Counted from the first letter of the stretch, positions 13,717-62,856 are shown. The stretch is 64,000 bases of DNA from Trypanosoma brucei (GCA_000002445.1 CP000069.1:960001-1024000); one strand, 5' to 3'. Made by a program: numbers and translations. The notes: generated by a model not told the origin, from the letters alone.

Positions 13717-15009
13717 ATGGAACTGCAGTCGCTTATAGACACGGTGAGTTTGCAAAAACTGCTGCTTCTGGGTGCCTTGTTGCGTTTAATTCTTATCGCG
13801 TATGCATTCTTTCATGATCAATGGTTTAGGGTAAAATATACGGATATTGATTACATGATCGTTGTGGATGGGGCGCGACACATGTGGAATGGGGGCTCTC
13901 CTTTCGATCGCACGACGTTTCGTTATACCCCCCTTCTTGCTGCGTTAGTGATGCCCAGCATTTGGATTGCGAATCCCATGGGAAAGTTGATATTCGCTTC
14001 TTCGGACTTAGGTGCGGCGTGGTATTGTTACGGTGTGCTGAAAAGTTTTGCCAAGGAAAGAAGTGCGAAGTGGATGGTGTCTTTATTTATCTTGTTTAAT
14101 CCGATTGTTCTGAGTGTGTCCACACGGGGGAACAGCGACATGCTGGTTACTTTCATGAGTTTGATGGTTTTGTCTAAGTTCGCTCGTCGTAAGTGCTATC
14201 AAGCAGCGGCCGTTCTTGGTTTCGCCGTTCACTTTAAGATATACCCGATAATATATGCTCTTCCGCTTACCCTTGGTGTGTGGGAACAATCTGTTGCGGC
14301 GAGCACAAACACGTGGAGACGGGTGGTCAAAACAGCAGTCGTCGTGTCAATATGCGCACTAATGGCTGCAATTTCCTTCGCAGTACCCACGGTCCTTTGT
14401 TACATGAAGTATGGACAACAGTACCTCAACGAGGCCTTTATTTACCATGTATATCGCGAAGATCATCGTCACAACTTTTCACCGTATTGGTTGCTGATGT
14501 ATCTCAACATGGCGAGACGTCATCTGGGACAAGGTGTTGACTTCTCCCCGCGCCTCGTTGCGTTTGCTCCTCAGGCAGTGGTGTTGAGTTTTGTATCGTA
14601 CAAACTCCGCCGCAACACGGCGCATGCTTGCTGTGTGCAGACGGTGTTGTTCGTTGCCTTTAATAAAGTGTGCACTGTACAATATTTTGTGTGGTTTATC
14701 CCCTTTCTTGCGTTCCTTTTCTGTGAGCCAAAAGAGGTGGAGGACGACGAAAGTGGTGGCAGCGGTGCGTTCAAATTTTTTTCCTGGGTGAAGGCGCTCG
14801 GTGTGGTGCTGATGTGGGCAGCAACCATTCCTCTATGGGTCACCACCGCCGTGCCGCTGGAGTTTCACGGTTATAGTGACTTTGCACAACTCTGGATTGT
14901 TTCGTGCCTTTTCTTTTTGGCGATGGTTGTACTCGCTTCCATGTTAGCACGCATTGCGTATCGGGTTCAGTGTACGAAGTGTTCAGCGAAGTCGATCAAA
15001 GTAGCTTAG
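13717..15009 (+). CDS. GPI14: GPI mannosyltransferase I (PIG-M / GPI14 family), a multi-pass ER membrane protein
   Basis: 430-aa ORF with the PIG-M signature region KYTDIDYMIVVDGARHMWNGGSPFDRTTFRYTPLL (human PIG-M has [35 protein letters not shown]). It has many predicted TM helices. Confidence 0.85.
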   Translation: MELQSLIDTVSLQKLLLLGALLRLILIAYAFFHDQWFRVKYTDIDYMIVVDGARHMWNGGSPFDRTTFRYTPLLAALVMPSIWIANPMGKLIFASSDLGAAWYCYGVLKSFAKERSAKWMVSLFILFNPIVLSVSTRGNSDMLVTFMSLMVLSKFARRKCYQAAAVLGFAVHFKIYPIIYALPLTLGVWEQSVAASTNTWRRVVKTAVVVSICALMAAISFAVPTVLCYMKYGQQYLNEAFIYHVYREDHRHNFSPYWLLMYLNMARRHLGQGVDFSPRLVAFAPQAVVLSFVSYKLRRNTAHACCVQTVLFVAFNKVCTVQYFVWFIPFLAFLFCEPKEVEDDESGGSGAFKFFSWVKALGVVLMWAATIPLWVTTAVPLEFHGYSDFAQLWIVSCLFFLAMVVLASMLARIAYRVQCTKCSAKSIKVA

Positions 15010-22090: not shown

Positions 22091-22413
22091 ACTCTGGAGA
22101 TCTTTCCACGAAGTAGCAACTTCTTTCCCCCCTCCCCCTTCTAGTTGGTGTATCACTTCGCCAGTATACATCTCAAGGGTGTCACGTTTAAGTGCTGCTG
22201 ACGTTTCCTTGGAAAAGAGGAAGGAAAGCGAAATTGTTTCGAGTTGCTGTGTGATCGAGGAAATCGATGGTTGCCTGAAAATTTCTAAAACCTCCCCTCT
22301 CAATTCTTTCTCTCCCTCACATTTCTTCACCGGAGGCTGGCACACACAAAAAAAAAAAGTACAGAAGAGAGGGTTGATCTATAAGTTGTTGCTGCGAAAG
22401 AGTTGTAGCACAA

Positions 22414-24009
22414 ATGCTCTTGGGATGCCGTCGGTTTGTCACACACGCCGTCGGACAATCTTTCCCCCACGTAACTTCTCCATTACGTGGTAAGCGGTTG
22501 CTGCGCTTGCGCCATGGCTGCCCTCGCGCTAAACCACTGCTCTCCGCCGAAGGGGATTTGCACACAACGCCGTTGGACCGTCCCCCGCCAACAGATATGC
22601 CACTCGCGTACTTGCAGGGGGAGATTTTGGATATGGAGAAGTATCGGACAGAAGAAGCTGTTTGGTCGAGAAACACAGTGCGGGAAGCATGGAATGCAAT
22701 TAACCACACACTGCACGATACGACCCCCGGCGTTGATGCAACGAAGAAGAAGGAGATAATTGAAAAAGACCTTGTAGGCTTGGCTCTCTGCACGTCATAT
22801 GCGGAAGTGAAGCACCTTCTTTCTCTGTTGACGCCCTCGCTTCGTTCACATATTGTTTCTCAGCCCTCCTATAAACAAACCGAGGTGGAGGAGTTTTTTC
22901 TCCATCTTGGACAAGACATCGAAGTGAGAGGTGCGGATTGGGTGATTCAGGTTCCGCCCCCGTCGGTGACCGATTTGCGTTATACCCTTGAGCGGGTGGG
23001 CCGATTTGGCGATGACGGCCGTGGGTGTATTGGACACACGCCGCATCGAGTAGCCGTGTGGCGCGGGCGGTTGGGGGAACCGTTAGGACTCACTATTCGT
23101 GTGGGACGTTATGTGCCGAATGTTGCCAGGGCATTGGTTCCTCTTGCGCGACGAGGTAGTGTTTTGATACTCTCCAAGGCGGGTATGGGAAAGACCACAA
23201 TCCTGAGAGACCTCGCTGCTTCCCTCTCTCGTGATCCGGCGAAACCCCGCGTTATGGTCGTTGATACCTCGAACGAAATTGGAGGTGATAGCCCGATGCC
23301 GCTGCCTTTTCTAGGGCGTTGTCGCCGTATCCAGGTCCCGCGTCGCGAGGAGCAACAAGAAGTAATGAAACAAATTCTTCAAAACCACTCACCGGAGTAC
23401 GTAATTGTTGATGAGGTTTCCACTACCGCCGAAGCAGAAGTAACGTGGTCCATTTCCCAACGGGGAGTTCATCTCGTTGCCACATGCCATGGCGAAAGTT
23501 TAGCGGGGTTATTGCAAAACCAGTCACTGAACTTGTTGGTGGGAGGCACCGCGCATGCATTTCTTAGTAACGAGGAGCGGCGGTTACGGAACAAGATCAA
23601 GAAAACTATCCTCGAGAGGCCGCATTCATCACCGTTTAAGTTTGTTGTGGAACTCCATTCACGGAAATTCGCTCATCTTTATGTGGATGTAAACCAGGCT
23701 GTTGATTGTCTTTTGGACCAGGGGGATGCGAGACGAAGTGCACGGATTGGGAAAACAATTGCCATTGATGAGCCACTGCCAGATGAGGTGATGGGTTTAG
23801 TTATGTCTCAAGAAAAGGAAGGTTCATATGCAAGAGAGCCGTCACACGAATCGTGGAGTGAGTGCAACGATGATGACAGTTGCGCCCTCGCCGGGCGGGA
23901 GGGGTGGCGGCCAAACAACCGGCCCGAGAGGCAGCGAGGGACTCGGTCGCATGGATGTCGAAAAAGATCAAATGACGACTTGTTGGACGAACTGAATAAC
24001 TTTAATTAA
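22414..24009 (+). CDS. SpoIIIAA / ycf45-like P-loop ATPase with a long N-terminal extension
   Basis: 531-aa ORF. The Walker A region GMGKTTILRDLAASLS, then VMVVDTSNEIGG, then Walker B-like YVIVDEVST and VHLVATCHGESLAGLL, follow the order and spacing of bacterial SpoIIIAA (GKTTLLRDLARQLS, VDERSEIAG, VLIVDEIG, VITTAHG). Confidence 0.55.
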   Translation: MLLGCRRFVTHAVGQSFPHVTSPLRGKRLLRLRHGCPRAKPLLSAEGDLHTTPLDRPPPTDMPLAYLQGEILDMEKYRTEEAVWSRNTVREAWNAINHTLHDTTPGVDATKKKEIIEKDLVGLALCTSYAEVKHLLSLLTPSLRSHIVSQPSYKQTEVEEFFLHLGQDIEVRGADWVIQVPPPSVTDLRYTLERVGRFGDDGRGCIGHTPHRVAVWRGRLGEPLGLTIRVGRYVPNVARALVPLARRGSVLILSKAGMGKTTILRDLAASLSRDPAKPRVMVVDTSNEIGGDSPMPLPFLGRCRRIQVPRREEQQEVMKQILQNHSPEYVIVDEVSTTAEAEVTWSISQRGVHLVATCHGESLAGLLQNQSLNLLVGGTAHAFLSNEERRLRNKIKKTILERPHSSPFKFVVELHSRKFAHLYVDVNQAVDCLLDQGDARRSARIGKTIAIDEPLPDEVMGLVMSQEKEGSYAREPSHESWSECNDDDSCALAGREGWRPNNRPERQRGTRSHGCRKRSNDDLLDELNNFN

Positions 24010-24344: not shown

Positions 24345-24836
24345 ATGATATCATTGCGGGGAAACATAGGTTTGCTTACCCGGCGGCGCCACGCCGTTAT
24401 CACTCTCCACTCTGCATTAGAGTTGTGTGGTGTCACACGTTACAAGAGTTCATTACCCAACAGCGCATTAACTGCTCGAACAGCGGAGGCCCTCTATTCC
24501 ATGGAACATTACCATAAGCAATGCCTCAATGAGGATGAGCGTCGGCAAGTCGAAGTGCAAGCTTGGGAAGAACTAATGAACCTTCCTGATGCTGCAGTGG
24601 AGGATGCGTCCTCAAGCGTTGTCGCCGACATTCTCGGTTCCTGGTGCTATTTTTCGAAATTTTGGGACCGAGGAATACAAGGCCCCAACCCATCAGACAG
24701 TCCTGAAGAAAACAACGTCAAAAAGGTCAATGTTCCTCTAATCGCAAGGGAATTCCACCGACCCCATTCCCCATCAACAGTTGACACGGCACCACCACCC
24801 CGCGCGAATCCACTAGATGAAGTGCTGGACTTTTGA
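24345..24836 (+). CDS. Hypothetical small protein (163 aa), the last ORF of the plus-strand array
   Basis: ORF only. No motifs recognised. The start codon is uncertain. Confidence 0.3.
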   Translation: MISLRGNIGLLTRRRHAVITLHSALELCGVTRYKSSLPNSALTARTAEALYSMEHYHKQCLNEDERRQVEVQAWEELMNLPDAAVEDASSSVVADILGSWCYFSKFWDRGIQGPNPSDSPEENNVKKVNVPLIAREFHRPHSPSTVDTAPPPRANPLDEVLDF

Positions 24837-26125: not shown

Positions 26126-26999
26126 AAACAAATGCTATTTGTTTAAGTTAGGTTTTTTCTATCTTCTCTTTTCATTGTTCACATAAACATTGCATGTTAG
26201 TGTTTTCGACAAAGCAGTGCATTCAACAATATTAGCATTTTTCAGTAATAATAAAACATAAATATATCTATGTGTTCCTCTCTATTTATATTTTTAATGT
26301 GCATGCGCTTACGGTACGAAAGAAAACATCTATTGTATTAAATTTTTACCACTTATTACAACTTAATAGTTGGATTCCTGCATGGTGCACTCCAACTCTC
26401 CCTTCCTATCTGCTTATCTACAACACTTTTATTTCTCACATACCATCACATGATTCTAATAGGGATATGGTTATACTAGCTGATTCCGTGATAGCTTCCC
26501 CCCTTGGTTTTTTTTCCAAAAATGACGGGAAATGATACGAGAGATGTTGGGACCTCCAACGAAAATTCGTTTCTGTTACTTTGACAAGTACATGATACAG
26601 TGTTAGACTTAAATGCGGGGATGGAGTTCATTAAAGGACAGATGAAAATACAGAGAGATGAAATTGCGTCTATGGATATGAGACTTAGCAAACAAATGAA
26701 AATACGGGAGGAAAAAGGTGTGGATATAAGTAGGACGTTGAATTGGCTGACGTTACTGGTTGAAAATGAGCGTCCTGGTGCATATGAATCTGCGTACAAT
26801 GTAATACAGCGCGTAATCTCATATGACGATAATAAGGGATTGCTGGGGTTGCATGCTGAGGAAAGGGTTGCTAACCTTCGGGCAGATGAAAAATGCCATA
26901 CCAGGTTCGACCGAAATGGGCCGATATTGCATGTTATCACCTCTAAGAAGGGTTGGTCATGCACAGATTTTGGTGGAAGAGATGCATGCGACATGTTTG

Positions 27000-27150
27000 T
27001 GCGCAAGGAGACGGTACGTATGTGGCACAGAATCCGAGCACATTTGGATGATTGGTTACCGACTGGCTCCCAAGTGTCCCAACAGCCCCTCTTACTTGTT
27101 TGTTCTCGGGAGATCGGAAAATCCTGTGGTCGGGAGAATACAGCGATGTG
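27000..27150 (-). mobile_element. Degenerate ingi-related (DIRE-like) fragment on the minus strand. It is 5'-truncated inside the AP-endonuclease region and may extend further toward about 26.5 kb.
   Basis: The reverse complement of 27100-27150 reads cacatcgctgtattctcccgaccaca..., matching the internal ingi site catcgctgtattctcccgataccgaccaccatcaca at 27762 in copy 1. Downstream similarity (gagaacaaacaag against gagacgacacagac) decays quickly. Confidence 0.4.
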
Positions 27151-27376
27151 CCCTGACGATGCCAGCCACCTCAACGTGGTGTCAGAGTCCAGTACCCCGT
27201 CTCATCGGGGGAAGCCAAGAGCCAGCAGCGTTCCTTTCATGGGCAACACTGCTGTGCTCCGGCTACGGCATCATACAGCACAGGGATCAGCAGCGTCTTG
27301 CTGGGACACCGTTTTTCATTTGTCGGTCCATGGGCACGTGCCAGCGTGTCATCAGCAGTATATCATCCACACTAAG

Positions 27377-30300
27377 ATGCTGCTGTCCGGTGATGTGGAA
27401 GAGAATCCCGGCCCGTCGTTGCGCGGGATGCAGTGGAACTGCGCCGGGCTATCTCAAGGAAAGAGATTAGCATTAGCACGTCGGCATACATCCCACCAAA
27501 ACGCACATTCACGGCAAATGACTTAGATACGCTTCTGACGACCGACGGTGCCCAGCTCATCGGTGCAGACGCTAACGCACACGCGTTGGTATGGGATCGC
27601 GCGAGCCCACCAAATACCAAGGGTGAAACCCTCACACAGTGGTGCATTGACAACCAGCTTCTGGTCTGTAACACTGGTGAGTGCACCAGGTACGCCCGCC
27701 ACCACGTGAAGCCCACCCCTGATATGACGCTATCAAGGAATTTCACAGTGTCCAGGTGGACATCGCTGTATTCTCCCGATACCGACCACCATCACATATT
27801 TTTCGACGTTATTGTTGGAGACGACACAGACTCACTGAGCTGCCCGCGGCTTTGAAAACCCATGTACGCATAGCTAAAAGCTGACTGGAGGAATTTCCGT
27901 CTCAAGGTTGACGAGTTCTGCAGAAAAATTGGTAGAGAATAACGTCAACACCCTGAAACAGAAATTGAGCTCCGCCATCCGCATTGCGACGAAGGTCTCC
28001 GTTCCCCGTGGCTGCAGAGCAACGCCACCACATGGGACACCTGCGCTCGCGAAACTCGATGAAGAGATCGCTGGATACGGACCCTCTCACCGAAGGGAAA
28101 AGTTGGTAGCCACGCGTAAGCAGATCCTGGACCGCACCACAAAGAAGAGATGGAGCACGCTATGCTCCAGACTTGCGGTGTCAGACCGCTGCAGTTGGCA
28201 CATTGTCAAGAAAGTATACGCGCCACGACCACTAACCACACCGGCTGTACTTGTTGATAACGCGGCCATCACGGACTACCGTCAAGCTGAGAGGTTCAGT
28301 AAACTGTACTCATCCCGCGCAAGAAGGCACCCCGACTCACACCCACCGGCACCCATAAAGACGATAGCGAGTGAGTTTAGTCTCATCACGATAGCTGAAC
28401 TACGGAGATCGATCAAACTGCTACCGAGTGGATCCGCAGCCGGACCTGATTGCTTATACAACGAGGCATTACAACATCTCGGTAGAGCAGCGCTGAATGT
28501 TGTGCTGAGGCTATTCAATGAGAGCCTACGAATGGGAGCCGTGCCGTCTGCATGGAAGACCGGTGTTATCATCCCCATCCTGAAGGCCAGAAAAAAGGAA
28601 GAGTACCCCGAATCTTACAGGCCTGTGACGCTCACGAGCTGTCTCTGCAAAGTCATGGAGCGCATAATTGCCGCAAGGTTTAGAGACACTGTTGAGTCCC
28701 AGCTGACGCCGCAGCAATCAGGCTTTCGCCCCGGATGCTCACCGCTCGAACAACTCCTGCACGTCTGCGCTGCCCTCTGCCGTCCCACGCACCAATATCG
28801 TACAGGTGCTGTATTCGTTGACTACGAGAAGGCATTTGACACAGTAGACCACGACAAAATTGCGGGGGAAATGCACAGAATGAAGGTATCACCCCACATT
28901 GTGAAGTGGTGCGTATCATTTCTGAGTAACCGAACTGGTAGAGTGAGATTCAAGGAGAAACTTTCCAGAAGCAGAACATTTGAGCGAGGAGTGCCACAAG
29001 GAACTCTCCTTGGCCCAATCATGTTCATAATTGTCATGAACTCGTTGAGCCAACGCCTTGCAGAAGTGCCGTTGCTGCAGCACGGATTCTTTGCAGACGA
29101 CCTGACGCTACTTGCGAGGCACACAGAGGGATGTCATCAACCAGACGCTACAATGCGGCCTAAACGTGGTGTTACAGTGGTCAAAAGAGTACTTCATGTC
29201 TATCAATGTAGCGAAAACAAAGTTCACACTCTTCGGGTTCACAGAGCGCCACCCCCTTACATTACAACTGGAAGGCGAAAGAATAGGAGCTGACAGGACA
29301 CCGAAGCTTCTAGGAGTAACATTCCAGTGTCTGCAAGGGATGGCAACACATGCGGCCGAAACGAGACGCAAGATGGACTTCCGACTACTGCAGATAACAG
29401 TCATCTCAGCTTCTATATGGGGGCCAATACGACAAGTGCTGAGAGCTTTTTATCTAGCACTCGTACAGGCACGCACCATGTGTGGCATTGAGGTATGGTA
29501 CTGGGACGCTTCGGAACGAAGTCGCGACCTCCTTGCAGCAGCACAACACAAAGCCAGTCGAATCATAGCTGGCATACCGCATGGGACGCGCGAAGAGGAC
29601 TCTCTGCTGGAAGCAAACCTCCTGCCACTCAAGACGACCACTCTTGTGCGCAGCATGAAATTCATGCTGATGTGTGAGTCACGAGGCGGATGTTTGCGGC
29701 GCAGTGCTGAGGAAGTATACCACAGCAAACACCCAGTCAGAGCCCTACACTCCCGCATCATGCGGTCCTACCCCCACCTCCGCATTGAGCCACGCGAGCA
29801 CCCACTAGAGACATCGACGCTCCGCCACAGCTGCCGACCGATATTTCACACGCAGATAAAGCCTGTGTGCGCTGATGACCCTGACAATGTCAAAAGGGAG
29901 GCTTCCGAAAAGTGATTGCACGGCATTTTTCACGGAGGGGGAAGGAGCCACCGCGGCGAGTGCACTACGAATTGTGGACTGATGGATCCGTGCCCCTCGG
30001 TGAGAAGTCCGGATCAACTGCCCTGCTCTATAGAAACAACACGCTGATTTGTGCACCCGAGACCGGAGCAGGGGAACTTTCATGCAGTTACAGAGCGGAA
30101 TGCGTAGCATTAGAGATAGGACTGTAACGGCTGCTGAAATGGCTTCTGGCATACAGAAGCACACCGAGCAGGTTGTCCATCTTCTCTGACTCGCTGTCAA
30201 TGTTAACAGCACTGCAGACGGGCCCCCTATCCGTAACGGACCCAATTCTGAGACGACTATGGAGGCTTCTGCTTCAAGTTGAGAGAAGGAAGGTGCGTAT

Positions 30301-31883
30301 CCGACTGCAATTTGCGTCCGGCCATTGTGGCGTGAAACGGAATGAGGTTTGCGATGAAATGGCCAAAAAGGCCGCTGATTTACCACAGTTGCGAGACGCA
30401 TGGATCCCCGACATCATTGCTTATGCGAAGCGAGTGCTTAGGTCGGAAGAAGTCTATGAGAACACTCATAGGTTTGGTATCACGGGCAACCACTTTCCAA
30501 CAAAACATAAAGAAGAACTGACGGGGGAAGAAGAAACGGCACTGGCACGCTTTCGGGTTGGAGTCTTCAAGATACTATGGATGGATGTTGCGAAAGATCA
30601 ACCCGAGTGTGCCTCCACAGTGCCGATGGTGCAACCCGCAACATGCAGCAATAGGGCCAACAATACAAACAGTCCCAACTGTTGCGACACGCACTCTTCA
30701 GAGAACCTCCGAACCAACTAAATGTACGGAATGTGATGCCACATACCAATACCTGTCGAATGCTGTAACGCACATGGTAAACAAACATGGCTTTGTGCGA
30801 GCTGATGCCCTCCGGAGGATCAAATACGGCGATGCAACACCCGCAGTGGACATCCTCCCGGAGCCCTCTCCAGTGGTGGCGATCGTTCCTCTACCATCGA
30901 GCATACGAGTCCTGATGAGACCGCAGGTGCTTTACTGTACCCTCTGTGCCTCCAAATTCGCAGTGCCAGGCCGACTATTACACCATCTTAGAACAATACA
31001 TGGCATAGGCAGCGGTAGTTGCCGCGTGAAAAGGGGGCGAGAGAGCGAGGACTCAGTGCAAGGAGATGGTAGCGTCCCAGCAGCCCCAGCCCCTCAGGAA
31101 ACACGGAAGCTGCCGTTTCAATGTGACCTGTGCGAGGCGAGCTTCAGTACACGTTCTTCCCTGTCACTACACAAGAAATTCAAGCATAAGAGCATAGTGA
31201 CGGAGGACGGTACCGTGGTGTTGGTGCAATTCCCTCGTAAGCGTGCCCGTGAGGGAAACGTTGACGTCCCGGGGAAAGGCGAGGTGCAGTGTGGTGTGTG
31301 TCAAAAAGTGCTCAGTTGCAGGGACTCCCTCATCCGACACTGTAAGGCTTTCCACAAAGGTGAGGGAGTCGAGCTTAAATGCAGCAAAAGCACAAAATTG
31401 CGTGCCACTGATTCCCCGCATACAAATGCATCCATGTTGGTGCGCCCGACATGCGGAAGGCAGTGTGCTAGCAAAACTGGCCTCACCCTACATCAAAAGA
31501 AGATGCACGGTATGAAGGTAGAGCGCGCTGTTACCAGCCAACGCGGCGACTGCGAAGAAACGTCGCTGCACCTGATGAGCTGTCCCAGTTTGAAGGAGTT
31601 ACGTGTCAGGCTTGCAGTAGAAGGTGAGTGTGTGCAGGATATATGTTTTTCCAAAAGGCTGGCGCAATTTCTCATTGCGGTTGAACGGAGCCGGCCGCAG
31701 GTGAAGTCCTCCCCCAATGTAACAGTCATACAACCCACTCTCCCTTCTGCAACTTCCCAGCTTATTGCCGAGTGTGGAGCTAGCAGGAAAAGCACCGGAC
31801 GCTGGAATAGTCCAGACACCCTCAGAGACAGAGGGGGTATGCAGTTAACAAGCAACAGAAACAGAAAGAGGGAGAGAGAATAA
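27377..31883 (+). pseudogene. ingi polyprotein ORF (APE-RT-RNase H-ZnF) disrupted by multiple frameshifts
   Basis: The ORF track shows successive fragments 26600-27526, 27433-27855, 27908-29293, 29112-29915, 30173-30721 and 30558-31883 in different frames. Together they reconstitute one retrotransposon polyprotein. Confidence 0.75.
27392..27415 (+). other. 2A-like co-translational ribosome-skipping motif (D-V-E-E-N-P-G-P) at the N-terminus of the ingi ORF
   Basis: The codons gat gtg gaa gag aat ccc ggc ccg encode ...MLLSGDVEENPGPSLRGMQWNCAGL... The motif lies about 12 codons upstream of the APE domain start (QWNCAGL) and conforms to the canonical D(V/I)ExNPGP. Confidence 0.8.
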
Positions 31884-33611
31884 TAAACAAATAACAAAAT
31901 TCAAAACAAAAGGATTGCTAATTGACATTTTTGTGAGAGTCCGGGGTGGGAGGCTTCTCGCCCCGTCTGCTGTATTCCGTTCAACTGCGGAGCTACAACA
32001 AAACGTTATAGAGAGGGTGTGTTAGGATGAATAATAAAGGGAGACTCTGCCACAGTCGCCAGACCGATAGCATCTCAGGGCTCTACGGTGATGGCTGATG
32101 GCCGTGCCAGTGGGGGGAAACTCTCACGAAGGCACGAAAAAAAAAATTTTTAAAGTCTATAGGCAAACCTCTACCCTGATATGGCTAATGTTATCCGCTA
32201 AGAGATTTTGTTCGTGTCAGTATAAGCAGATGTCTCATGCCACAAGAGAATTTACGTATGGTTTTTGCTGCAAACAAACCAAATGATATACTTAAGTTTA
32301 CGTGTTTTCTTTCTTATAATTGAAATAGATGACATTATTTTGTCCATCTTTTTTTCCTTTTCTACTGACCAATCGCCTTCCGTATTTCTCATCCTGATGT
32401 CGAATATTATTCCTGTTTCCTCATTTTTTATTTCAGTAAACAGCAATTTTGCACAGCTATCACTCGACAAAAAATATGTTAATAATCTGAATAGTAATGA
32501 TTATATTATTATAAGAGAACACATTCATGTACGCCACTACTTCTCCCAGTAACAACGATAATCATACATAACATTGTATGTGCGTGTTCACGCGTTTCTC
32601 GTACATTATCATTTCTTTTGTTGTAATGTCCCTGTTTGAGTCATCTCAATTGCGAGTTATTATAACTCTGGTTGTCCCTCCACTATCTTTGTTTGGGGGT
32701 GGTGGGGTGTGTTAATGCTCTTTGCATGTGGAGTGGGGATAGAGGAATAGGGCCCTGCTTATGTGAAGAGTGTGTGAAGTAAGGATGATGAGAGTTACTT
32801 ATAAGGTGTGTAATTATTTTGCGTGTGGAAAATGGTCTAAATGAGGGTGCTGAGAGGGAAGGTCTCTAATTATTCTGGGACTGTTTTGTGTGCTAGCAAC
32901 TAACATAATATTCCATCATGCCAACGTATAATGAAAGGTTTCATTAATAAGCTTAATTTTCTGAGATGGTGTTTTGAAACCCCAATTGTTACCTTTACTA
33001 GTGTGTTGTTTAGGAAAATGGAACGCAAGAAGCTGTGTATACATATAGAGAGGGAAAGAAAGAGTATTTCCAGTACGCGTATGAAAGGAAGAGGATATGC
33101 TGAATAGGGCTCAGTAGCAGAGTTGTGTTCATTGGACAAGGGTAACACGTGCGTGCAAATTAGGCACGTGATGTGCCAGCGAATTAAGCTATTAAAGTAG
33201 CAACTGGAGCCAATGGAGGACTTGGAAAAATAGCATAACGTGAAGGTGCAAGTACTCATGAGGAGAATGGATAAGCTTGTTATTGATGGAAGGTGCAGCG
33301 CAGCTCAGTTGGAGGTGCGGTTACTTGGCATGATGGTTAGTGAAGTTTTTTTTTTTTGAATCAAGAAGTTAGGGAAAATGGGGTAACCAACAGGAAAACA
33401 CCTGTGAGGGAACTCAATGTTGATATACGGCTTGAGGGGAGGGTTCCATACAACTCTGTGTGCTTTGGGATGTGCTTCCTCTTTTGTTGAATGCTGCTGT
33501 AGTTGGTTTGTGTCAGGCACTTATTAATTTCGATATTTTTATGTGTCTGTTTGTTGTGTCTGTCAATAACAACAACAATTGTTATGACAAGCTTTAGTTT
33601 TCTCCTCCTTT

Positions 33612-35019
33612 TTGGCTGATGAACGTATAGGCAAAATCACGATGAGGCACGAAGCAGTGTTTGCCATTGGGATGCTTGCGGCTGTTTTATCTCCTTCCTC
33701 TCAGGGTGATTTGAATTCTTTCAAATGGAGGACTGAGATGTTTGACTGGAGCCAGTTTGCGGATGATGTGGATGAAAAAGAAAGGCACCACAACTTTGGA
33801 GAGTTCGAGACACTGCAAGATTTACAGAATTACGCAGGCAGAGGCCCCACAGCCTTCCTTCAAGAATCGTGAAAAGGAAGGAGAGATTCTGAAGAATTTG
33901 GAGGAAATGGTCAGTGAGGCAGAAGCTGTTGGTGGCAATAAGGGCTCGAACAATTCATCTAACAGCACGACAGCATATCAGGAGATGAAGAAACTATTTG
34001 AGAAGGCGAAAAAGCTTAAGGAGCAGATAGAGGTGAATAGGACAAAAGCCTTGAATGCAAGTCGCTCTGCTGAAGAAAATATGTTGAAAGCTGTGTATGG
34101 CGATGCTGTGGATGTGGCAAGAAACGAGAATAAAACTCTGGAGGAAGCCATGAGAGGAAACAAATCACTGCTGTTCAATAGTGTCTACAATGCAGACACG
34201 AGCTGCGGTTCTTTTGGAGACAAGTTAGTCGGAAAGACTCTAATTAATGACTTTTTCTGCCTATGTGTGGGAGAGGCTGTTGATTTAATTAAGAAGTTCG
34301 AAAAGCCAAATAATCATGTATATAAATTAGATGTTCCCGATAGCGATGATAACAATATATATAATGGGTTAAATTGTCCTTGTAAGGATGAAATAAGGAG
34401 ACCTAAAAATGGTAGTTGGACTATGATGGCTGCACATTGTAAAGGTGACAGCAGCAAGTGCAACCCCGACAATATAAGATACAACCATACTGAGGCATGG
34501 GATGTGATTAGTAGAGCTTGCGTGTACAAGAATATTGCATCTAATGTGAAAACCCTAAAGAGTGCATTAGCTCAGTTTGATGCGTTAGTGAATTTGGAAC
34601 AGGGCGGACATCAGGTGAAAGGTATTCTTGGTTATGTGAAAACATTAAACAACGAAAATCGCACATGCACAGGTCACACTGCTGGGTTTACATGCGTCAG
34701 TTACAACTACACACTTAAAAATGGTGGAATTCCATGGTACAACCGCCTCACTAACGCCACCAAGGAACTACAAGAAATGGCGAAGTATGCCAAAGAGGCT
34801 GACAGCCATCTTCATGAGTTGGAAGAATTCCAACATGAGGCAGAGGAAATATTTCTTGAAGTGAAGCTAGGTGGTGATGCAGAGCTATGGAAGAGTAGCC
34901 GAGGTAGGGATGATGGTGAAAGTGGCAATGCTGAAGTAAATAATAATGGATTCAACTATATAGATATAACAACTGATATTTTTACATTAATGATTCTATA
35001 TCTTTTTTGTATATTTTAG
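33612..35019 (+). pseudogene. VSG-like / VSG-related surface glycoprotein pseudogene, split by a frameshift between the signal peptide and the body
   Basis: ORF 33612-33872 provides a signal peptide (MRHEAVFAIGMLAAVLSPSSQG). The frame-shifted ORF 33742-35019 encodes a K/E-rich helical N-terminal region and a Cys-patterned middle (CLCVGE, NCPCKDE, AAHCKGDSSKCNPD, RTCTGHTAGFTCVSY). It ends in a short hydrophobic tail (DIFTLMILYLFCIF) like a GPI-addition signal. The two ORFs overlap in different frames. Confidence 0.45.
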
Positions 35020-35249: not shown

Positions 35250-37255
35250 TTTTTTTTGAAAGCTCGCTGTCGATGCTACGACATCTTATGGGAGCTGAAA
35301 CTTTATGTAACTTTTTTTTATTGTGTATCATGCTGCGTTGTCAGTGTACTATTAGCTTGTTACTATCTGTGTCGGATAAAGCTATATTTGTCTTGTTAAT
35401 GACTTTTATAGGTTGGGTCGGAACTAGTTGTAAAAGACAAGTAGGCGTTACTGAAATTTTAATTTTCAACCATTCGCTATGGCTGTAAAAGCGTACTTGC
35501 GAGTGAAAGGCTTCTGCCTCTTTTTTTTTTTTTTGAGCCAAACGTAGAAGAGCATAGTGGAGTTTACAATTTTCATTCAGAGGAGTGGGCAGCTTTTTGT
35601 GTAGTCTATTCTCCTTTATAGGGGTGTTCCTCTCGAATGAAGAAAGTACATGTTGGAAGAGAATGAGGGGTTTCTCAATTTCTAGGAGGAATTGTGCAAG
35701 GTTCTTGGTGAACACTATCTTCTGCATATTTTTGCCCTCAAGCCCGAAGTAACTGCGGAGCACTTTAGGCTTGAGCGCGCGAGTATGTGGGTGGGATTCT
35801 CTTCGCATTCGTTGGAGTGTGTATGTTTCCTTTCAACGCAGATTTCATGTTTTTGATGGCGATGTATAGATGAGCCTGATGTTGATTGGGACGTCTTATT
35901 TCGGTTTACGAACGTGAAGTGTAGATGAAACCCTCTGACGTTGAAGCTCCGGAGCGGTGGTGGAGATTCTTTTGCTACGGAGAAGGGATGCTGTCTATGC
36001 ATTCCCCCGAAGTGCTCCATCAGGCTGTCTTTTGATACATGCGTATGACGGCATTGCGTGCAACAGGTGTCATTTAGACCTATAGTTACCGTGTTCCAAA
36101 TGAGGGATACCTCTTGTTCTGTGATGGAACGGCTCCGTTTTGTACCAGCGTTACTATCCAGGGGATGGCCTCTGCGGTGTTGAATCTTGGTGCTTGGTGT
36201 TGTTCCCCCTTTTGATTGTGATACAAAGCTGCATTGCCTGCATTGTAGCGGCTCAGATGTGCCTACTGGGTCGTGCACTGGATGCCCTCTCGTTTCCGTC
36301 GCTCGGGAGCCCTTTGTTGGAATACTTGCATTCTCTTCGAGTTCCCATTGCCTTTTTATTCCTCGCGACCCCGTTTGCGGTTGTACTTCGCAGTATTTCA
36401 TCCCGTGACTTATCACTAGTCCAATTTACGTGTGAAATATATAGCTGCGAGGTCCATATATCGCTTCATTTTCTCCAGAGGTTGAACTGGTGGTGTTATC
36501 ACTTTGTTCATTGGTGTTGGGTTGATGCGGTCGGTTTTCACTTTGTGTGCCTATCCGTTTCTCCACCACTGGAATGATGTGCTAAAGCTGACCTCTGCTC
36601 TTTATTCCATGACGCATTGTCGAGTCTCTCTGCTCAATCAATTTGAACCCACAGATTCCTCACTGGAGTGTGTTTTTTATCATATTCAGTGTGGATTATG
36701 GTTCCGCCAGTGTGGGGTGGAAAGGGACTGCCGTTGGTCATGTAGTGTTTCTGTGGCCTGCGCAATGTTAGTACACCTGCGCTCTTGGATTGAAAAAGCC
36801 ACGTTCTGCGCAAACCCATTTGTGCTGTTTGATATTTTCATCTTCTTTCCGCTTCTCCGACATTTCATCGTCTAACTTTCTCGTTTTGCCGTGAAGGCAT
36901 CGAGTTTTGTGCCATGTGAGCCCTCCTTTGTTTCCATAGGATTTGTTACAGACACTGAGCACATACGACTTCGGTGGAGGGGGCAGGGGTTATAAGGTGA
37001 ACATTCCACATCACCGAACAGCAGCATCTTAGTGTGGATGATATACTGCTGATGGCACGCTGGCACGTGCCCAGCGAACGACAAATGAAAAACGGTGTCC
37101 CAGCAAGACGCTGCTGATCCCTGTGTTGTATGATGCCGAGGCCGGAGCACAGCAGAGTTCCCCATGAAAGGAACGCTGCTGGCTCTTGGTTTCCCCCGAT
37201 GATGCGGGGTACTGGACTCTGGCACCACGTGGAGGTGGCCGGCATCGCCAGAGGG
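35250..37255 (-). mobile_element. Old degenerate ingi-related element (DIRE) on the minus strand with a large internal deletion. Its 5' Pr77/2A end lies at 37255 and its 3' T-rich end near 35250.
   Basis: The minus-strand ORF 36872-37258 encodes HLHVVPESSTPHHRGKPRASSVPFMGNSAVLRPRHHTTQGSAASCWDTVFHLS...MLLFGDVE, about 88 percent identical to copy 1 residues upstream of its 2A motif. The reverse complement of 37241-37255 is the Pr77 start (ccctctggcgatgcc). The region 36885-37000 is a weak reverse-complement match to the APE start. Minus ORFs 35715-36416 and 35341-35808 keep ingi C-terminal features (PLQCRQCSF..., CTQCRHTHVSKDSLMEHFGGMH, NLAQFLLEIEKP against KRLAQFLIAVERSRP). Poly(T) runs sit at about 35090-35260. 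Confidence 0.5.
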
Positions 37256-37402
37256 CATCGCTGTATTCTCCCGATACCGATCACCATCACATATTTTTCG
37301 ACGTTATCGTTGGAGACGACACAGACTCACTGAGCTGCCCGCGGCTTTGAAAACCCATGCACGCATAGCTAAAAGCTGACTGGAGGAATTTCCGTCTCAA
37401 GG

Positions 37403-39775
37403 TTGACGAGTTCTGCAGAAAAATTGGTAGAGAAGAATGTCAACACCCTGGAACAGAAATTGAGCTCCGCCATCCGCATTGCGACGAAGGTCTCCGTTCC
37501 CCGTGGCTGCAGAGCAACGCCACCACATTGGACACCTGCGCTCGCGAAACTCGATGAAGAGATCGCTGGATACGGACCCTCTCACCGAAGGGAAAAGTTG
37601 GTAGCCACGCGTAAGCAGATCCTGGACCGCACCACAAAGAAGAGATGGAGCACGCTATGCTCCAGACTTGCGGTGTCAGACCGCTGCAGTTGGCACATTG
37701 TCAAGAAAGTATACGCGCCACGACCACTAACCACACCGGCTGTACTTGTTGATAACGCGGCCATCACGGACTACCGTCAAGCTGAGAGGTTCAGTAAACT
37801 GTACTCATCCCGCGCAAGAAGGCACCCCGACTCACACCCACCGGCACACATAAAGACGATAGCGAGTGAGTTTAGTCTCATCACGATAGCTGAACTACGG
37901 AGATCGATCAAACTGCTACCGAGTGGATCCATAGCCGGACCTGATTGCTTATACAACGAGGCACTGCAACATCTCGGTAGAGCAGCGCTGAATGTTGTGC
38001 TGAGGCTATTCAATGAGAGCCTACGAATGGGAGCCGTGCCGTCTGCATGGAAGACCGGTGTTATCATCCCCATCCTGAAGGCCAGAAAAAAGGAAGAGTA
38101 CCCCGAATCTTACAGGCCTGTGACGCTCACGAGCTGTCTCTGCAAAGTCATGGAGCGCATAATTGCCGCAAGGTTTAGAGACACTGTTGAGTCCCAGCTG
38201 ACGCCGCAGCAATCAGGCTTTCGCCCCGGATGCTCACCGCTCGAACAACTCCTGCACGTCTGCGCTGCCCTCTGCCGTCCCACGCACCAATATCGTACAG
38301 GTGCTGTATTCGTTGACTACGAGAAGGCATTTGACACAGTAGACCACGACAAAATTGCGGGGGAAATGCACAGAATGAAGGTATCACCCCACATTGTGAA
38401 GTGGTGCGTATCATTTCTGAGTAACCGAACTGGTAGAGTGAGATTCAAGGAGAAGCTTTCCAGAAGCAGAACATTTGAGCGAGGAGTGCCACAAGGAACT
38501 GTCCTTGGCCCAATCATGTTCATTATTGTCATGAACTCGTTGAGCCAACGCCTTGCAGAAGTGCCGTTGCTGCAGCACGGATTCTTTGCAGACGACCTGA
38601 CGCTACTTGCGAGACACACAGAGAGGGATGTCATCAACCAGACGCTACAATGCGGCCTAAACGTGGTGTTACAGTGGTCAAAAGAGTACTTCATGTCTAT
38701 CAATGTAGCGAAAACAAAGTTCACACTCTTCGGGTGTATAGGGCGCCACCCCCTTACATTGCAACTGGACGGCGAAAGGATAGGAGCTGACAGGACACCG
38801 AAGCTTTTAGGAGTAACATTCCAGTGTCTGCAAGGGATGGCAACACATGCGACCGAAACGAGACGCAAGATGGACTTCCGACTACTGCAGATAACAGTCA
38901 TCTCAGCTTCTATATGGGGGCCAATACGACAAGTGCTGAGAGCTTTTTATCTAGCACTCGTACAGGCACGCACCATGTGTGGCATTGAGGTATGGTACTG
39001 GGACGCTTCGGAACGAAGTCGCGACCTCCTTGCAGCAGCACAACACAAAGCCAGTCGAATCATAGCTGGCATACCGCATGGGACGCGCAAAGAGGACTCT
39101 CTGCTGGAAGCAAACCTCCTGCCACTCAAGACGACCACTCTTGTGCGCAGCATGAAATTCATGCTGATGTGTGAGTCACGAGGCGGATGTTTGCGGCGCA
39201 GTGCTGAGGAAGTATACCACAGCAAACATCCAGTCAGAGCCCTACATTCCCGCATCATGCGGTCCTACCCCCACCTCCGCATTGAGCCACGCGAGCACCC
39301 ACTAGAGACATCGACGCTCCGCCACAGCTGCCGACCGATATTTCACACGCAGATAAAGCCTGTGTGCGCTGATGACCCTGACGATGTCAAAAGGGAGGCT
39401 CCCGAAAAGTGGATTGAACGGCATTTTGCACGGAGGGGGAAGGAGCCACCGCGACGAGAGCACTACGAATTGTGGACTGATGGATCCGTGCCCCTCGGTG
39501 AGAAGTCCGGATCAACTGCCCTGCTCTATAGAAACAACACGCTGATTTGTGCACCCAAGACCGGAGCAGGGGAACTCTCATGCAGTTACAGAGCGGAATG
39601 CGTAACATTAGAGATAGGACTGCAACGGCTGCTGAAATGGCTTCCGGCATACAGAAGCACATCGAGCAGGTTGTCCATCTTCTCTGACTCGCTGTCAATG
39701 TTAACAGCACTGCAGACAGGCCCCCTAGCCGTAACGGACCCAATTCTGAGACGACTATGGAGGCTTCTGCTTTAA
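37403..39775 (+). pseudogene. ingi copy 2 RT-RNase H ORF (790 aa), terminated by a premature stop shared with copy 3
   Basis: RT motifs (FFADD) and RNase H (ELWTDGSVPLGEKSGSTALLY). The ORF ends ...RRLWRLLL at a TAA where copy 1 has CAA (Q). Confidence 0.8.
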
Positions 39776-40055
39776 GTTCAGAGAAGGAAGGTGCGTATCC
39801 GACTGCAATTTGCGTCCGGCCATTGTGGCGTGAAACGGAATGAGGTTTTCGATGAAATGGCCAAAAAGGCCGCTGATTTACCACAGTTGCGAGACGCATG
39901 GATCCCCGACATCATTGCTTATGCGAAGCGAGTGCTTAGGTCGGAAGAAGTCCATGAGAACACTCATAGGTTTGGTATCACCTGCAACCACTTTCCAACA
40001 AAACATAAAGAAGAACTGACGAGGGAAGAGGAAACGGCACTGGCACGCTTTCGGG

Positions 40056-41519
40056 TTGGAGTCTTCAAGATACTATGGATGGATGTTGCGAAAGATCAAC
40101 CCGAGTGTGCCTCCACAGTGCCGATGGTGCAACCCGCAACATGCAGCAATAGGGCCAACAATACAAACAGTCCCAACTGTTGCGACACGCACTCTTCAGA
40201 GAACCTCCGAACCAACCAAATGTACGGAATGTGATGCCACATACCAATACCTGTCGAATGCTGTAACGCACATGGTAAACAAACATGGCTTTGTGCGAGC
40301 TGATGCCCTCCGGAGGATCAAATACGGCGATGCAACACCCGCAGTGGACATCCTCCCGGAGACCCCTCCAGTGGTGGCGATCGTTTCTTTACCATCGAGC
40401 ATACGAGTCCTGATGAGACCGCAGGTGCTTTACTGTACCCTCTGTGCCTCCAAATTCGCAGTGCCAGGCCGACTATTACACCATCTTAGAACAATACATG
40501 GCATAGGCAGCGGTAGTTGCCGCGTGAAAAGGGGGCGAGAGAGCGAGGACTCAGTGCAAGGAGATGGTAGCGTCCCAGCAGCCCCAGCCCCTCAGGAAAC
40601 ACGGAAGCTGCCGTTTCAATGTGACCTGTGCGAGGCGAGCTTCAGTACACGTTCTTCCCTGTCACTACACAAGAAATTCAAGCATAAGAGCATAGTGACG
40701 GAGGACGGTACCGTGGTGGTGTTGCAATTCCCTCGTAAGCGTGCTCGTGAGGGAAACGTTGACGTGCCGGGGAAAGGCGAGGTGCAGTGTGGTGTGTGTC
40801 CAAAAGTGCTCAGTTGCAGTGACTCCCTCATCCGACACTGTAAGGCTTTCCACAAAGGTGAGGGAGTCGAGCTTAAATGCAGCAAAAGCACAAAATTGCG
40901 TGCCACTGATTCCCCGCATACAAATGCATCCATGTTGGTGCGCCCGACATGCGGAAGGCAGTGTGCTAGCAAAACTGGCCTCACCCTACATCAAAAGAAG
41001 ATGCACGGTATGAAGGTAGAGCGCGCTGTTACCAGCCAACGCGGCGACTGCGAAGAAACGTCGCTGCACCTGATGAGCTGTCCCGGTTTGAAGGAGTTAC
41101 GTGTCAGGTTTGCGGTAGAAGGTGAGTGTGTGCAGGATATATGTTTTTCCAAAAGGCTGGCGCAATTTCTCATTGCGGTTGAACGGAGCCGGCCGCAGGT
41201 GAAGTCCTCACCTAATGTAACAGTCATACAACCCACTCTCCCTTCTGCAACTTCCCAGCTTATTGCTGAGAGTGGAGCTAGCAGGAAAAGCACCGGACGC
41301 AGGAATAGTCCAGACACCCTCAGAGAGGGGGTATGCAGTCAACAAGCAACAGAAACAGAAAGAGGGGGAGAGAATAATAAACAAAGAACAAAATTCAAAA
41401 CAAAAGGATTGCTAATTGACATTTTTGTGAGAGTCCGGGGTGGGAGGCTTCTCGCCCCATCTGCTGTATTCCGTTTAACTGCGGAACTACAACAAAACGT
41501 TATAGAGAGGGTGTGTTAG
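40056..41519 (+). pseudogene. ingi copy 2 C-terminal C2H2 zinc-finger ORF (487 aa)
   Basis: Multiple C2H2 fingers (CTECDATYQYLSNAVTHMVNKHGF, CTLCASKFAVPGRLLHHLRTIHG, CDLCEASFSTRSSLSLHKKFKHK, CGVCPKVLSCSDSLIRHCKAFH). It is frameshifted relative to the upstream ORF. Confidence 0.75.
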
Positions 41520-41568
41520 GATGAATAATAAAGGGAGACTCTGCCACAGTCGCCAGACCGATAGCATC

Positions 41569-42750
41569 TCAGGGCTCTACGGTGATGGCTGATGGCCGTG
41601 CCAGTGGGGGGAAACTCTCACGAAGGCACGAAGAAAATTCCAAAAAAAAAAAAATAGAGAAGCATATATCCTGCACACACTCACCTTCTACCGCAAACCT
41701 GACACGTAACTCCTTCAAACCGGGACAGCTCATCAAGTGCAGCGACGTTTCTTCGCAGTCGCCGCGTTGGCTGGTAACAGCGCGCTCTACCTTCATACCT
41801 TGCATCTTCTTTTGATGTAGGGTGAGGCCAGTTTTGCTAGCACACTGCCTTCCGCATGTCGGGCACACCAACATGGATGTGTTTGTATGCGGGGAATCAG
41901 TGGCACACAATTTTGTGTTTTTGCTGCATTTAAGCTCGACTCCCTCACCTTTGTGGAAAGCCTTACAGTGTCGGATGAGGGAGTCCCTGCAACTGAGCAC
42001 TTTTTGGCACACACCACACTGCACCTCGCCCTTCCCCGGGACGTCAACGTTTCCCTCACGGGCACGCTTACGAGGGAATTGCACCAACACCACGGTACCG
42101 TCCTCCGTCACTATGCTCTTATGCTTGAATTTCTTGTGTAGTGACAGGGAAGAACGTGTACTGAAGCTCGCCTCGCACAGGTCACATTGAAACGGCAGCT
42201 TCCGTGTTTCCTGAGGGGCTGGGGCTGCTGGGACGCTACCATCTCCTTGCACTGAGTCTTCGTTCTCTCTCCAACTTTTCACGCGGCAACTACCGCTACC
42301 TATGCCATGTATCGTTTGAAGGTGGTGTAATAGTCGGCCTGGCACTGCGAATTTGGAGGCACAGAGGGTACAGTAAAGCACCTGCGGTCTCATCAGGACT
42401 CGTATGCTCGATGGTAAAGAAACGATCGCCACCACTGGAGGGGGCTCCGGGAGGATGTCCACTGCGGGTGTTGCATCGCCGTATTTTATCTTTCGAAGGG
42501 CATCAGCTCGCACAAAGCCATGTTTGTTTACCATGTGCGTTACAGCATTCGACAGGTATTGGTATGTGGCATCACATTCCGTACATTTGGTTGGTTCGGA
42601 GGTTCTCTGAAGAGTGCGTGTCGCAACAGTTGGGACTGTTTGTATTGTTGGCCCTATTGCTGCATGTTGCGGGTTGCACCATCGGCACTGTGGAGGCACA
42701 CTCGGGTTGATCTTTCGCAACATCCATCCATAGTATCTTGAAGACTCCAA
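41569..42750 (-). pseudogene. ingi copy 3 C2H2 zinc-finger ORF, C-terminally truncated at the breakpoint
   Basis: It matches the copy 1 and copy 2 ZnF ORFs up to ...VQDICFS, then continues into unrelated sequence (the copy 2 poly(A) region read in reverse). Confidence 0.7.
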
Positions 42751-61858: not shown

Positions 61859-62820
61859 GGTTCAGGTTACTTTTTTCTCCTAACTTCTTTGACGGTTCTT
61901 TCCTACAACCCACAAAGCGACATCAATATCAACAGTAATAATAGTAATAAGAACATCGTCGACGGGACATAGTGAATGGAAATGGAAGGAAAACACAAGA
62001 GGAATGAATTTACGAGTATTGATGTGTGTGTGTGTGTGTCGAGGGGAGGGGAGACAACCATAATTCTAACGAAAGTACGACACGAATTTCATATTGATAT
62101 TTGTACATTAACAGGCTGTTTCACTTATTCCTTTTATGGTTTATCCACCACTTCGTTTTGCCTCTCCGCCAGTTCGCCCAGCAGTTCAAATGAGCAGATG
62201 CAGTGCTACGCCGTAGTAAAAGCTAATTAATTAATGTGTCATGCATTTGTCTATAACGTTATTTTTACTTTCCTATATGTGACGTGGTGAGAAGATAAAA
62301 GAGAGTGATAATAAAAAGTGAAAATATTGTTCATTTACTTCTACAACTTCAAAAAACTCAATTTGTAGCATCAAACTTTATAATTTTCATGATATCACGA
62401 ACACTGGAGCGGATCACAGTGATCAATGTTAATCAAACGGAATGCACTGCATAAACAAGTAAACAAGCACAAGCGCACGACAGAAATAGAAAGGAAAAAA
62501 AAAACAAACAAAAGTACTGTGGTGTGACGACAACAACAATAAAGGCAGTACGATAATTTTATTTTTGAAGAAAAAAATAATTAATTTATCGTCCATGCCG
62601 CGTTATTTACTTTTCCCTTACCATCTAGTACGTTTGTCTTTTTTTTTTTTCAACTTCTGCATATGATATTGTTTCGCTTGTTTGTCTGCTGGTTCTGTTT
62701 TCCCTCCTCACATTTTCATATTTCCTTGAAAAAAGGAAAAAAAGTAAATAAAGAAAAACATCTTTAGTAACAACAAAAAAAAGCAAATATTCCCCCCTTC
62801 GCTGTGGTTATATACACAAA

Positions 62821-62856
62821 TATATATATACATATATATATATTTATACATATATG
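62821..62856. repeat. Imperfect (TA)n / TATACA low-complexity tract
   Basis: tatatatatacatatatatatatttatacatatatg, read directly. Confidence 0.8.

Follow-up and report, generated by a model that had tools for sequence, protein, structure and literature searches.

Tb927.6.3350 of Trypanosoma brucei, a mitochondrial YCF45-type ATPase placed by published tagging at the tripartite attachment complex

Within a 64,000-nucleotide stretch of Trypanosoma brucei DNA (GCA_000002445.1 CP000069.1:960001-1024000; here called the window, with positions counted from its first letter), the open reading frame (ORF) at 22414..24009 on the + strand is the already catalogued gene Tb927.6.3350 ('YCF45'). Its product is a kinetoplastid member of the YCF45 branch of SpoIIIAA-like ATPases which, according to published data, is imported into the mitochondrion and sited at the tripartite attachment complex (TAC), proximal to the kinetoplast DNA (kDNA). 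This identity and localisation, taken jointly, are in our judgement very nearly certain. The explanation that best accounts for the observations as a whole, to which we assign a probability of roughly 0.55, is that Tb927.6.3350 is a mitochondrial YCF45-type motor ATPase acting at the kDNA/TAC interface. Gene, family and localisation were already known, through the YCF45 name carried in TriTrypDB since at least 2014, through mitochondrial reference sets and through tagging; what is described here is a variant architecture of a known family with a published localisation, and the finding itself adds nothing new.

The preliminary description of the window had placed the gene exactly where an ATG-initiated ORF of 531 codons plus stop is found, and this ATG is the first to follow an in-frame stop at 22375. 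The position of Tb927.6.3350 in a published supplement, Tb927_06_v5.1:982414-984009(+) with a length of 531, is an exact match to the window coordinates of the ORF plus 960000, which makes the window chromosome 6, 960001-1024000; published supplements also list the gene as 'hypothetical protein, conserved (YCF45)', UniProt Q584X8, 59.5 kDa. In sequence clusters a T. equiperdum entry has exactly the sequence of the ORF protein, and the 90% cluster also includes the T. b. brucei TREU927 protein XP_845456 / Q584X8. The NCBI model of this TREU927 protein has 470 amino acids (aa), starting at Met62 and omitting the presequence-like region (22414-22596), whereas the TriTrypDB, T. equiperdum and T. 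b. gambiense gene models all have 531 aa. The longer model is favoured because R56 and P59, which lie upstream of Met62, are invariant in 17 kinetoplastid sequences, and it is also backed by the database mass and by the stop and splice-type signals upstream of the ATG. The layout 5' of the ATG, in which polypyrimidine tracts are followed by AG, would correspond to the usual arrangement of a trypanosome trans-splice acceptor. The features of the gene are listed below, with motif conservation computed over 278 family sequences.

22291..22371 (+): putative trans-splice acceptor region, with polypyrimidine tracts at 22291-22301 and 22304-22318 and AG at 22334 and 22358-22370
22414..24009 (+): coding sequence of Tb927.6.3350 (YCF45-family ATPase), 531 aa, from the ORF and the match of coordinates, length and mass
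22414..22557 (+): residues 1-48, disordered N-terminus of presequence type, a probable signal for mitochondrial targeting
22576..22818 (+): residues 55-135, kinetoplastid-specific helical N-terminal region, from the kinetoplastid alignment and the model
22819..23103 (+): residues 136-230, family-wide beta-rich N-terminal domain, with invariant R203, H211, R212 and R229
23104..23733 (+): residues 231-440, RecA-like ATPase core of the PilT/VirB11/GspE type
23173..23199 (+): Walker A, SKAGMGKTT (G257, G259, K260, T261, T262), 95-99% conserved
23257..23289 (+): Asp box, VVDTSNEIGGD (D284 100%, E288 99% conserved)
23398..23415 (+): Walker B, YVIVDE (D333, E334), 99% conserved
23473..23493 (+): His box, LVATCHG (T357 97%, H359 100% conserved)
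23563..23622 (+): conserved basic motif LSNEERRLRNKIKKTILERP, residues 384-403, from the family-wide alignment
23836..23958 (+): residues 475-515, variable and largely disordered linker, from the alignment and the model
23959..24006 (+): residues 516-531, conserved C-terminal helix, consensus RKxTDEELLxELxxF

Judged by sequence, the match of Tb927.6.3350 to the Spore_III_AA/YCF45 family is far beyond chance. The Pfam model PF19568 (Spore_III_AA) covers residues 226-376 (profile positions 119-275 of 306) with 34.4 bits, above its gathering cutoff of 27, and is matched by all 17 kinetoplastid orthologues (best E 8.8e-13); the other P-loop families in the Pfam scan each score under their own cutoff, and the scan does not assign the P-loop region to an unrelated ATPase family. 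Among NCBIfam models TIGR02858 (spore_III_AA; E 4.8e-14, 52.3 bits) scores best, but its equivalog cutoff is 281.3 bits, and a score so far under it indicates family resemblance rather than SpoIIIAA orthology. Orthologues occur in every kinetoplastid sampled (E down to 1e-210), bacterial relatives match at up to E ~1e-59, and an exhaustive homologue search returned 3387 cluster representatives at E<=0.001; the bacterial YCF45-type protein P0073 (Dormibacteraeota), over its residues 18-322, is 41% identical to residues 136-438 of the T. brucei protein (E 4e-66). The two profile models and this bacterial alignment bear out the assignment to the SpoIIIAA/ycf45 family made in the preliminary description.

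The YCF45 or 'R3H domain-containing AAA ATPase' family, with which Tb927.6.3350 has in common the beta-rich N-terminal domain and the ATPase core (41% over ~300 residues, all motifs included), ranges over plastid ycf45 of red-lineage algae, Synechocystis slr0692, nuclear genes of the green lineage (such as that of Chlorokybus, P0120) and many Chloroflexi and Dormibacteraeota. These are plastid or bacterial proteins, whereas the kinetoplastid protein is, from published data, mitochondrial. The earlier view that eukaryotic homologues are mainly plastid ycf45 and R3H-type proteins holds broadly, but has to be widened to Naegleria and Phytophthora, which lack plastids, and to Euglena mitochondria. 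Three relatives of unusual make-up may be recorded here. P0094 (L003 1129-3822, GCA_006365135.1) has an N-terminal 3'-5' exonuclease (PF01612) fused to a Spore_III_AA ATPase; P0053, which falls in the kinetoplastid-like clade, carries a CCHC zinc knuckle C-terminal to the ATPase; and P0099, a divergent family member without R3H, lies on a gene-dense contig of 14.7 kb (L001) where almost no neighbour has a Pfam match.

The Walker A, Asp box, Walker B and His box motifs (the label 'Asp box' follows the naming convention for secretion ATPases) occur in the order seen in the PilT/VirB11/GspE superfamily, and Tb927.6.3350 has a two-domain fold in which an N-terminal domain precedes a RecA-like C-terminal domain. 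In the 17-sequence kinetoplastid alignment the catalytic motif residues are invariant or at least 90% conserved, and all are kept in T. brucei. With all four motifs intact, the protein is very probably a catalytically active ATPase. Across the 278 sequences R203, R212, R229, R304 and R305 are also essentially invariant, and L384, E388, R392, K397, E401 and R402 of the basic motif are 90-99% conserved, which would be compatible with a role of this motif in pore or substrate contact.

The preliminary description had called the protein secretion-ATPase-like, and comparison of folds agrees. The top Foldseek neighbour is PINA (PDB 5f4h), a 'RuvB-like Holliday junction helicase', and all the other top structural neighbours are motors of secretion, pilus or archaellum machines. 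PINA, an archaeal PilT-like protein, is 14-16% identical to Tb927.6.3350; its depositors name the chain 'Nucleotide binding protein PINc', and the Pfam scan finds no PIN-family match in the T. brucei protein. Identity to the hexameric ATPases PilT, PilB, GspE, VirB11, DotB, FlaI and CpaF is 12-19%, and the Pfam family T2SSE (PF00437) has no match in the T. brucei protein at E<=1, with weak matches in 5 of the 17 kinetoplastid orthologues (best E 0.054). A PDB sequence search with the single protein yields matches at the level of Walker A alone (Rho, F1 beta) and none among solved human protein structures, and a PDB profile search matched one R3H protein only, via the bacterial rows of the alignment. 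Since these searches gave nothing more, it is fold and motifs that carry the link to the PilT/VirB11/GspE superfamily. No membrane platform partner of Tb927.6.3350 is known, and its structure is here that of a single-chain prediction.

This AlphaFold2 model, built from 72 homologues, is of high confidence, with a mean predicted local distance difference test score (pLDDT) of 86.8 and a predicted template modelling score of 0.80. Residues 1-48 are predicted to be disordered, 55-148 helical, 160-229 a beta-rich domain and 240-440 an alpha/beta ATPase core, after which come a short strand and helix (446-474), a disordered linker (488-515) and a terminal helix (520-530). The preliminary description had suggested that an N-terminal extension of roughly 230 aa might hold an organellar targeting signal. 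The extension proves shorter, with a lineage-specific part at about residues 1-135, and the larger figure is an artefact of where the Pfam match starts, since the bacterial homologue aligns from residue 136. The signal itself finds support, in that residues 1-45 are presequence-like and rich in arginine, with a net charge of +9 (+2 to +9 among orthologues) and no Asp or Glu; the means of pLDDT over ten-residue blocks are 37-53 across residues 1-50, with values below 50 for 1-38. Residues 55-135 are modelled mainly as helix (block pLDDT 85-98, mostly 97-98) and have no Pfam match; R56, P59, W93, D119, L123, E131 and L135 are invariant in the 17 kinetoplastid sequences, while non-kinetoplastid matches begin to align only at about residue 112-135.

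Compared with bacterial and plastid YCF45 proteins, the kinetoplastid proteins have lost the PTPase-like and R3H domains and have gained, besides the presequence, the helical N-terminal region of ~80 aa and the C-terminal helix. The PTPase-like domain PF25516 is present in the relatives P0056, P0073, P0120 and P0121, and the bacterial relatives scanned also carry a C-terminal R3H domain (PF01424). Neither is found in the T. brucei protein at E<=1; PF25516 is not among the 25 most widely matched of the 48 families seen across the 17 orthologues, and R3H is not among the families listed for them. The R3H domain looked for on the strength of the preliminary description is thus absent from the kinetoplastid proteins in Pfam scans, although several orthologues are named 'R3H domain-containing protein' in databases. 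The linker at residues 475-515 shows no conservation among kinetoplastids, with pLDDT below 50 at 488-515, whereas the RKxTDEELLxELxxF motif of the terminal helix (block pLDDT 89 at 521-530) is kept from Trypanosoma to Bodo. In a multiple alignment this helix lines up with the one that, in bacterial R3H domains, comes before the RxxxH motif, and it may be a truncated R3H remnant, a weak suggestion given that a short acidic helix is being aligned at the end of a sequence.

The suggestion of a mitochondrial function, also made in the preliminary description, is supported by several published data sets. The ImportOmics study counts Tb927.6.3350 in its mitochondrial reference set. When the mitochondrial import pore ATOM40 is depleted by RNA interference (RNAi), the protein becomes less abundant, with ratios of 0.76 (p 0.0014) for whole cells and 0.74 (p 0.007) for organelle fractions, and knockdown of SAM50 or PEX14 brings no significant change. 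The protein is also listed as mitochondrial, and rises 3-fold, in a TbTim50 knockdown, and its Euglena gracilis orthologue, for which the best database match is an oomycete 'nucleic acid binding' protein, was detected in purified mitochondria. The most specific localisation result comes from the genome-wide tagging project TrypTag, where Tb927.6.3350 is one of 20 proteins in the class 'Tripartite attachment complex'. This class also holds p197, p166, TAC102, TAC65, TAC60 and TAC40 (gene IDs verified), none of which has a sequence relationship to Tb927.6.3350. The literature searched contains no data on kDNA missegregation, flagellum co-isolation or hierarchy for Tb927.6.3350.

How such an enzyme might act at the kDNA/TAC interface can be sketched by analogy. 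Tb927.6.3350 would form a ring, probably a hexamer, like its structural relatives; ATP hydrolysis by this ring would drive the pulling on, or remodelling of, a polymer, the likeliest being nucleic acid or nucleoprotein at the interface; and the enzyme would be docked, through its lineage-specific termini, to partner proteins taking the place of the R3H module it has lost. We regard this mechanistic part as tentative, and doubtful in its details. A nucleic-acid substrate is favoured because the family is ancestrally fused to R3H, because the ATPase shares its chain with a 3'-5' exonuclease in P0094 and with a CCHC zinc knuckle in P0053, because the top Foldseek neighbour is a junction helicase and because the protein gives a pull-down signal with mitochondrial polyadenylation factors. 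A more specific and rather unlikely form of the proposal makes the PilT-like ring ATPase a matrix-side component of the TAC that powers attachment, release or segregation of kDNA. If true, there would be an energy-consuming motor inside what has until now been described as a passive tether, and this motor would have arisen from an R3H-type YCF45 protein by loss of a nucleic-acid-binding module and acquisition of new docking termini.

A number of points weigh against a motor at the kDNA/TAC interface. The TAC assignment is one high-throughput tagging annotation, and a tag could disturb the presequence or the conserved C-terminal helix. No functional experiment on the protein was found in the literature searched, where just two papers mention it by name in the body of the text, and the main text of a 2026 RNAi screen for kDNA loss does not mention it. 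Pfam scans recognise no nucleic-acid-binding domain in the kinetoplastid proteins, there is no evidence that Tb927.6.3350 binds DNA junctions, and among characterised PilT-type ATPases the majority drive machines in membranes and do not work on nucleic acid. With 3 peptides and a normalised abundance of ~1e-4, the pull-down signals are weak and possibly matrix background. Nor does the family supply a functional anchor, since Synechocystis ycf45 (slr0692), which is still 'hypothetical', tolerates the frameshift mutations that arose in it during laboratory evolution and lacks an assigned function; indeed, no function is assigned to any YCF45 protein in the literature searched.

The same pull-downs could be read as the mark not of a kDNA/TAC protein but of an accessory factor of mitochondrial RNA processing, active in polyadenylation or editing; it might, for instance, use ATP to remodel RNA-protein complexes. 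In the tandem-affinity data of a mitochondrial polyadenylation study Tb927.6.3350 appears in 12 bait-prey rows, including those of KPAF4 and KPAP1, and the BioID data of that study record it with 3 peptides; relatives carry R3H, a single-stranded nucleic-acid-binding domain; and the TrypTag list of kinetoplast-associated 'antipodal sites' includes Tb927.2.1860, which is RESC9, so that a kDNA-proximal signal and RNA processing are not mutually exclusive. Recovery in the pull-downs is nevertheless very low, and the TrypTag class of Tb927.6.3350 is TAC, not antipodal. A Euglena paper labels the protein as a component of PAMC, the polyadenylation mediator complex, but the identification as a PAMC subunit is not corroborated, since current nomenclature assigns PAMC1-4 (RESC15-18) to four other genes (Tb927.1.1730, 6.1200, 10.1730 and 1.3010) and a 2026 complexome study defines PAMC as RESC15-18. 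We therefore consider a role in RNA processing doubtful, and take the low-level co-purification as a slight yet genuine sign that the protein lies near mitochondrial nucleic-acid machinery.

Bacillus subtilis SpoIIIAA is the ATPase of the SpoIIIA-SpoIIQ channel, which runs from mother cell to forespore. A motor of this kind, or of the type II/IV secretion style, docked at the mitochondrial inner membrane, where it would energise a transport channel or the assembly of a fibre, and possibly a membrane-spanning part of the TAC, would accord with SpoIIIAA being the best Pfam and NCBIfam model, the core being the same from upstream of Walker A through the His box, and with structural neighbours that, PINA excepted, drive secretion, pilus or archaellum machines; the TAC itself spans the mitochondrial membranes, and its published components include proteins of the outer membrane as well as, towards the kDNA, of the unilateral filaments. 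Yet the TIGR02858 score is that of a distant relative (52 bits against 281), and the protein is much closer to soluble R3H-type YCF45 proteins (41% identity) than to the SpoIIIAA models. No equivalent of a partner platform (SpoIIIAB-AH, GspL/F, PilC) is known or encoded nearby, the spoIIIAB-AH genes of the sporulation operon being absent around Tb927.6.3350, where the neighbours are unrelated; the host is a eukaryote, T. brucei, and no endospore former; and Pfam recognises no transmembrane or platform-binding element. A membrane-docked motor is accordingly improbable. Loss of the accessory domains and the long stem branch suggest a changed function, and might even point to a catalytically dead scaffold that keeps only the ATPase fold; retention of every catalytic motif residue in T. 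brucei, and of at least 90% conservation in the 17 kinetoplastid sequences, makes this the faintest of prospects.

The age of the gene can be read from a neighbour-joining tree, a crude method, of 278 core domains (298 columns, 100 bootstraps). Kinetoplastids and environmental sequences form a clade of 55 sequences with 100% bootstrap, and addition of a second group, which contains Perkinsela (KNH04102.1) and EukProt 'PhF_6', gives one of 60 sequences at 93%. We take 'PhF_6' to be a free-living prokinetoplastid, and the composition of this larger clade indicates that the gene was present in the kinetoplastid common ancestor. Of the ancient horizontal acquisition proposed in the preliminary description, the antiquity therefore stands, at least to the age of Kinetoplastea, whereas transfer and donor find no resolution in the tree: the sister group of the kinetoplastid clade has a bootstrap below 10%, and the clade is equidistant (p-distance 0.586-0.599) from cyanobacterial, green-lineage, Chloroflexi and Dormibacteraeota sequences.

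It has to be asked whether the gene is left over from a photosynthetic endosymbiont since lost, as a cyanobacterial or plant-like gene that endosymbiotic transfer brought in and that was then retargeted to the mitochondrion. Database names such as 'Chloroplast orF' or YCF45 invite this reading, and a 2009 study that found YCF45 homologues in the plastid-lacking Naegleria and Phytophthora classed them as cyanobacterial in ancestry. The best non-kinetoplastid matches, if marginally, are the PTPase-domain proteins P0119-P0121 of ~730 aa (212.6-223.4 bits, against at most 212.1 for the next), of which P0120 is from the streptophyte alga Chlorokybus. Against it stand the equal distances and the poorly supported sister group, profile scores that are nearly identical for Prochlorococcus, Chloroflexi and Coccomyxa (283-296 bits), and the mitochondrial location of both the T. 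brucei protein and its Euglena orthologue. There is no specific plastid signal in the present data, which make such an origin quite unlikely and argue against citing Tb927.6.3350 as evidence for a lost plastid in trypanosomatids. Two apparent closer relatives were set aside. The sequences P0095, P0099 and P0226 appear as sister group with less than 10% support and are in fact the most distant from the kinetoplastid clade, a placement that reflects long-branch attraction; and the 307 bits of Chlamydomonas schloesseri P0112, which put it nearer to the T. brucei protein than bacteria, are the sum of two tandem copies (142 + 137 bits). P0112 (KAG2447382.1, 1753 aa) holds two near-identical ATPase cores, at ~562-781 and 1425-1654, which stem either from genuine duplication within the gene or from the merging of gene models.

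Tb927.6.3350 remains of interest on two counts. YCF45 proteins number thousands of bacterial, plastid and protist members whose function is without assignment in the literature searched, and trypanosomes offer a tractable system with a sharp and unusual YCF45 localisation, an entry point to the function of the family. The protein is also a candidate enzyme of the apparatus that segregates kDNA. This segregation is essential in the bloodstream-form parasite, and as a target the structural TAC proteins would be less attractive than a TAC enzyme with a druggable nucleotide pocket and no match among solved human protein structures.

Tb927.6.3350 lies in a + strand run of unrelated genes, which encode PIG-M, a calpain-like peptidase, cytochrome b561, NFACT-R and an orphan of 163 aa. 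The upstream ORF with a PIG-M domain (13717-15009) fits Tb927.6.3300, that is TbGPI14. Directly 3' of Tb927.6.3350, at 24345-24836 (+), lies the 163-aa ORF, which has no Pfam match and is Tb927.6.3360 by gene order; its product is in the mitochondrial reference set and in the TrypTag 'antipodal sites' class (58 proteins). Tb927.6.3350 and Tb927.6.3360 are thus adjacent genes with kinetoplast-associated products, which may be coincidence in a polycistronic array.

Elsewhere in the window there are three copies of an ingi-type non-LTR (long terminal repeat) retrotransposon, at ~27100-32130 (+), ~37000-41620 (+) and ~41650-45660 (-), with ORFs for reverse transcriptase and C2H2 zinc fingers. Copies two and three stand tail to tail and form an inverted repeat of 3721 nt, 99% complementary, at 37429-41149 and 41657-45377 with 507 nt between, and an apparent switch of coding strand near 41.5 kb lies within this retroelement cluster. 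At the 5' end of the first copy (27392-27415, +) a viral 2A-like 'DVEENPGP' occurs, once in the window; such 2A sequences are familiar from L1Tc/ingi elements of trypanosomes. A retrotransposon-hot-spot (RHS_N) fragment (26600-27526, +) and an ORF with a VSG_B domain (33742-35019, +) are found among the retroelements, both chromosome-internal. On the - strand, 48864-49913 encodes an RsfS (ribosomal silencing factor) domain with an N-terminal extension of ~200 aa, and 51461-54001 a protein kinase fused to a right-handed beta-helix/NosD-like domain. At 62001-64000 the G+C fraction drops to 0.31, against 0.39-0.53 in the rest of the window.

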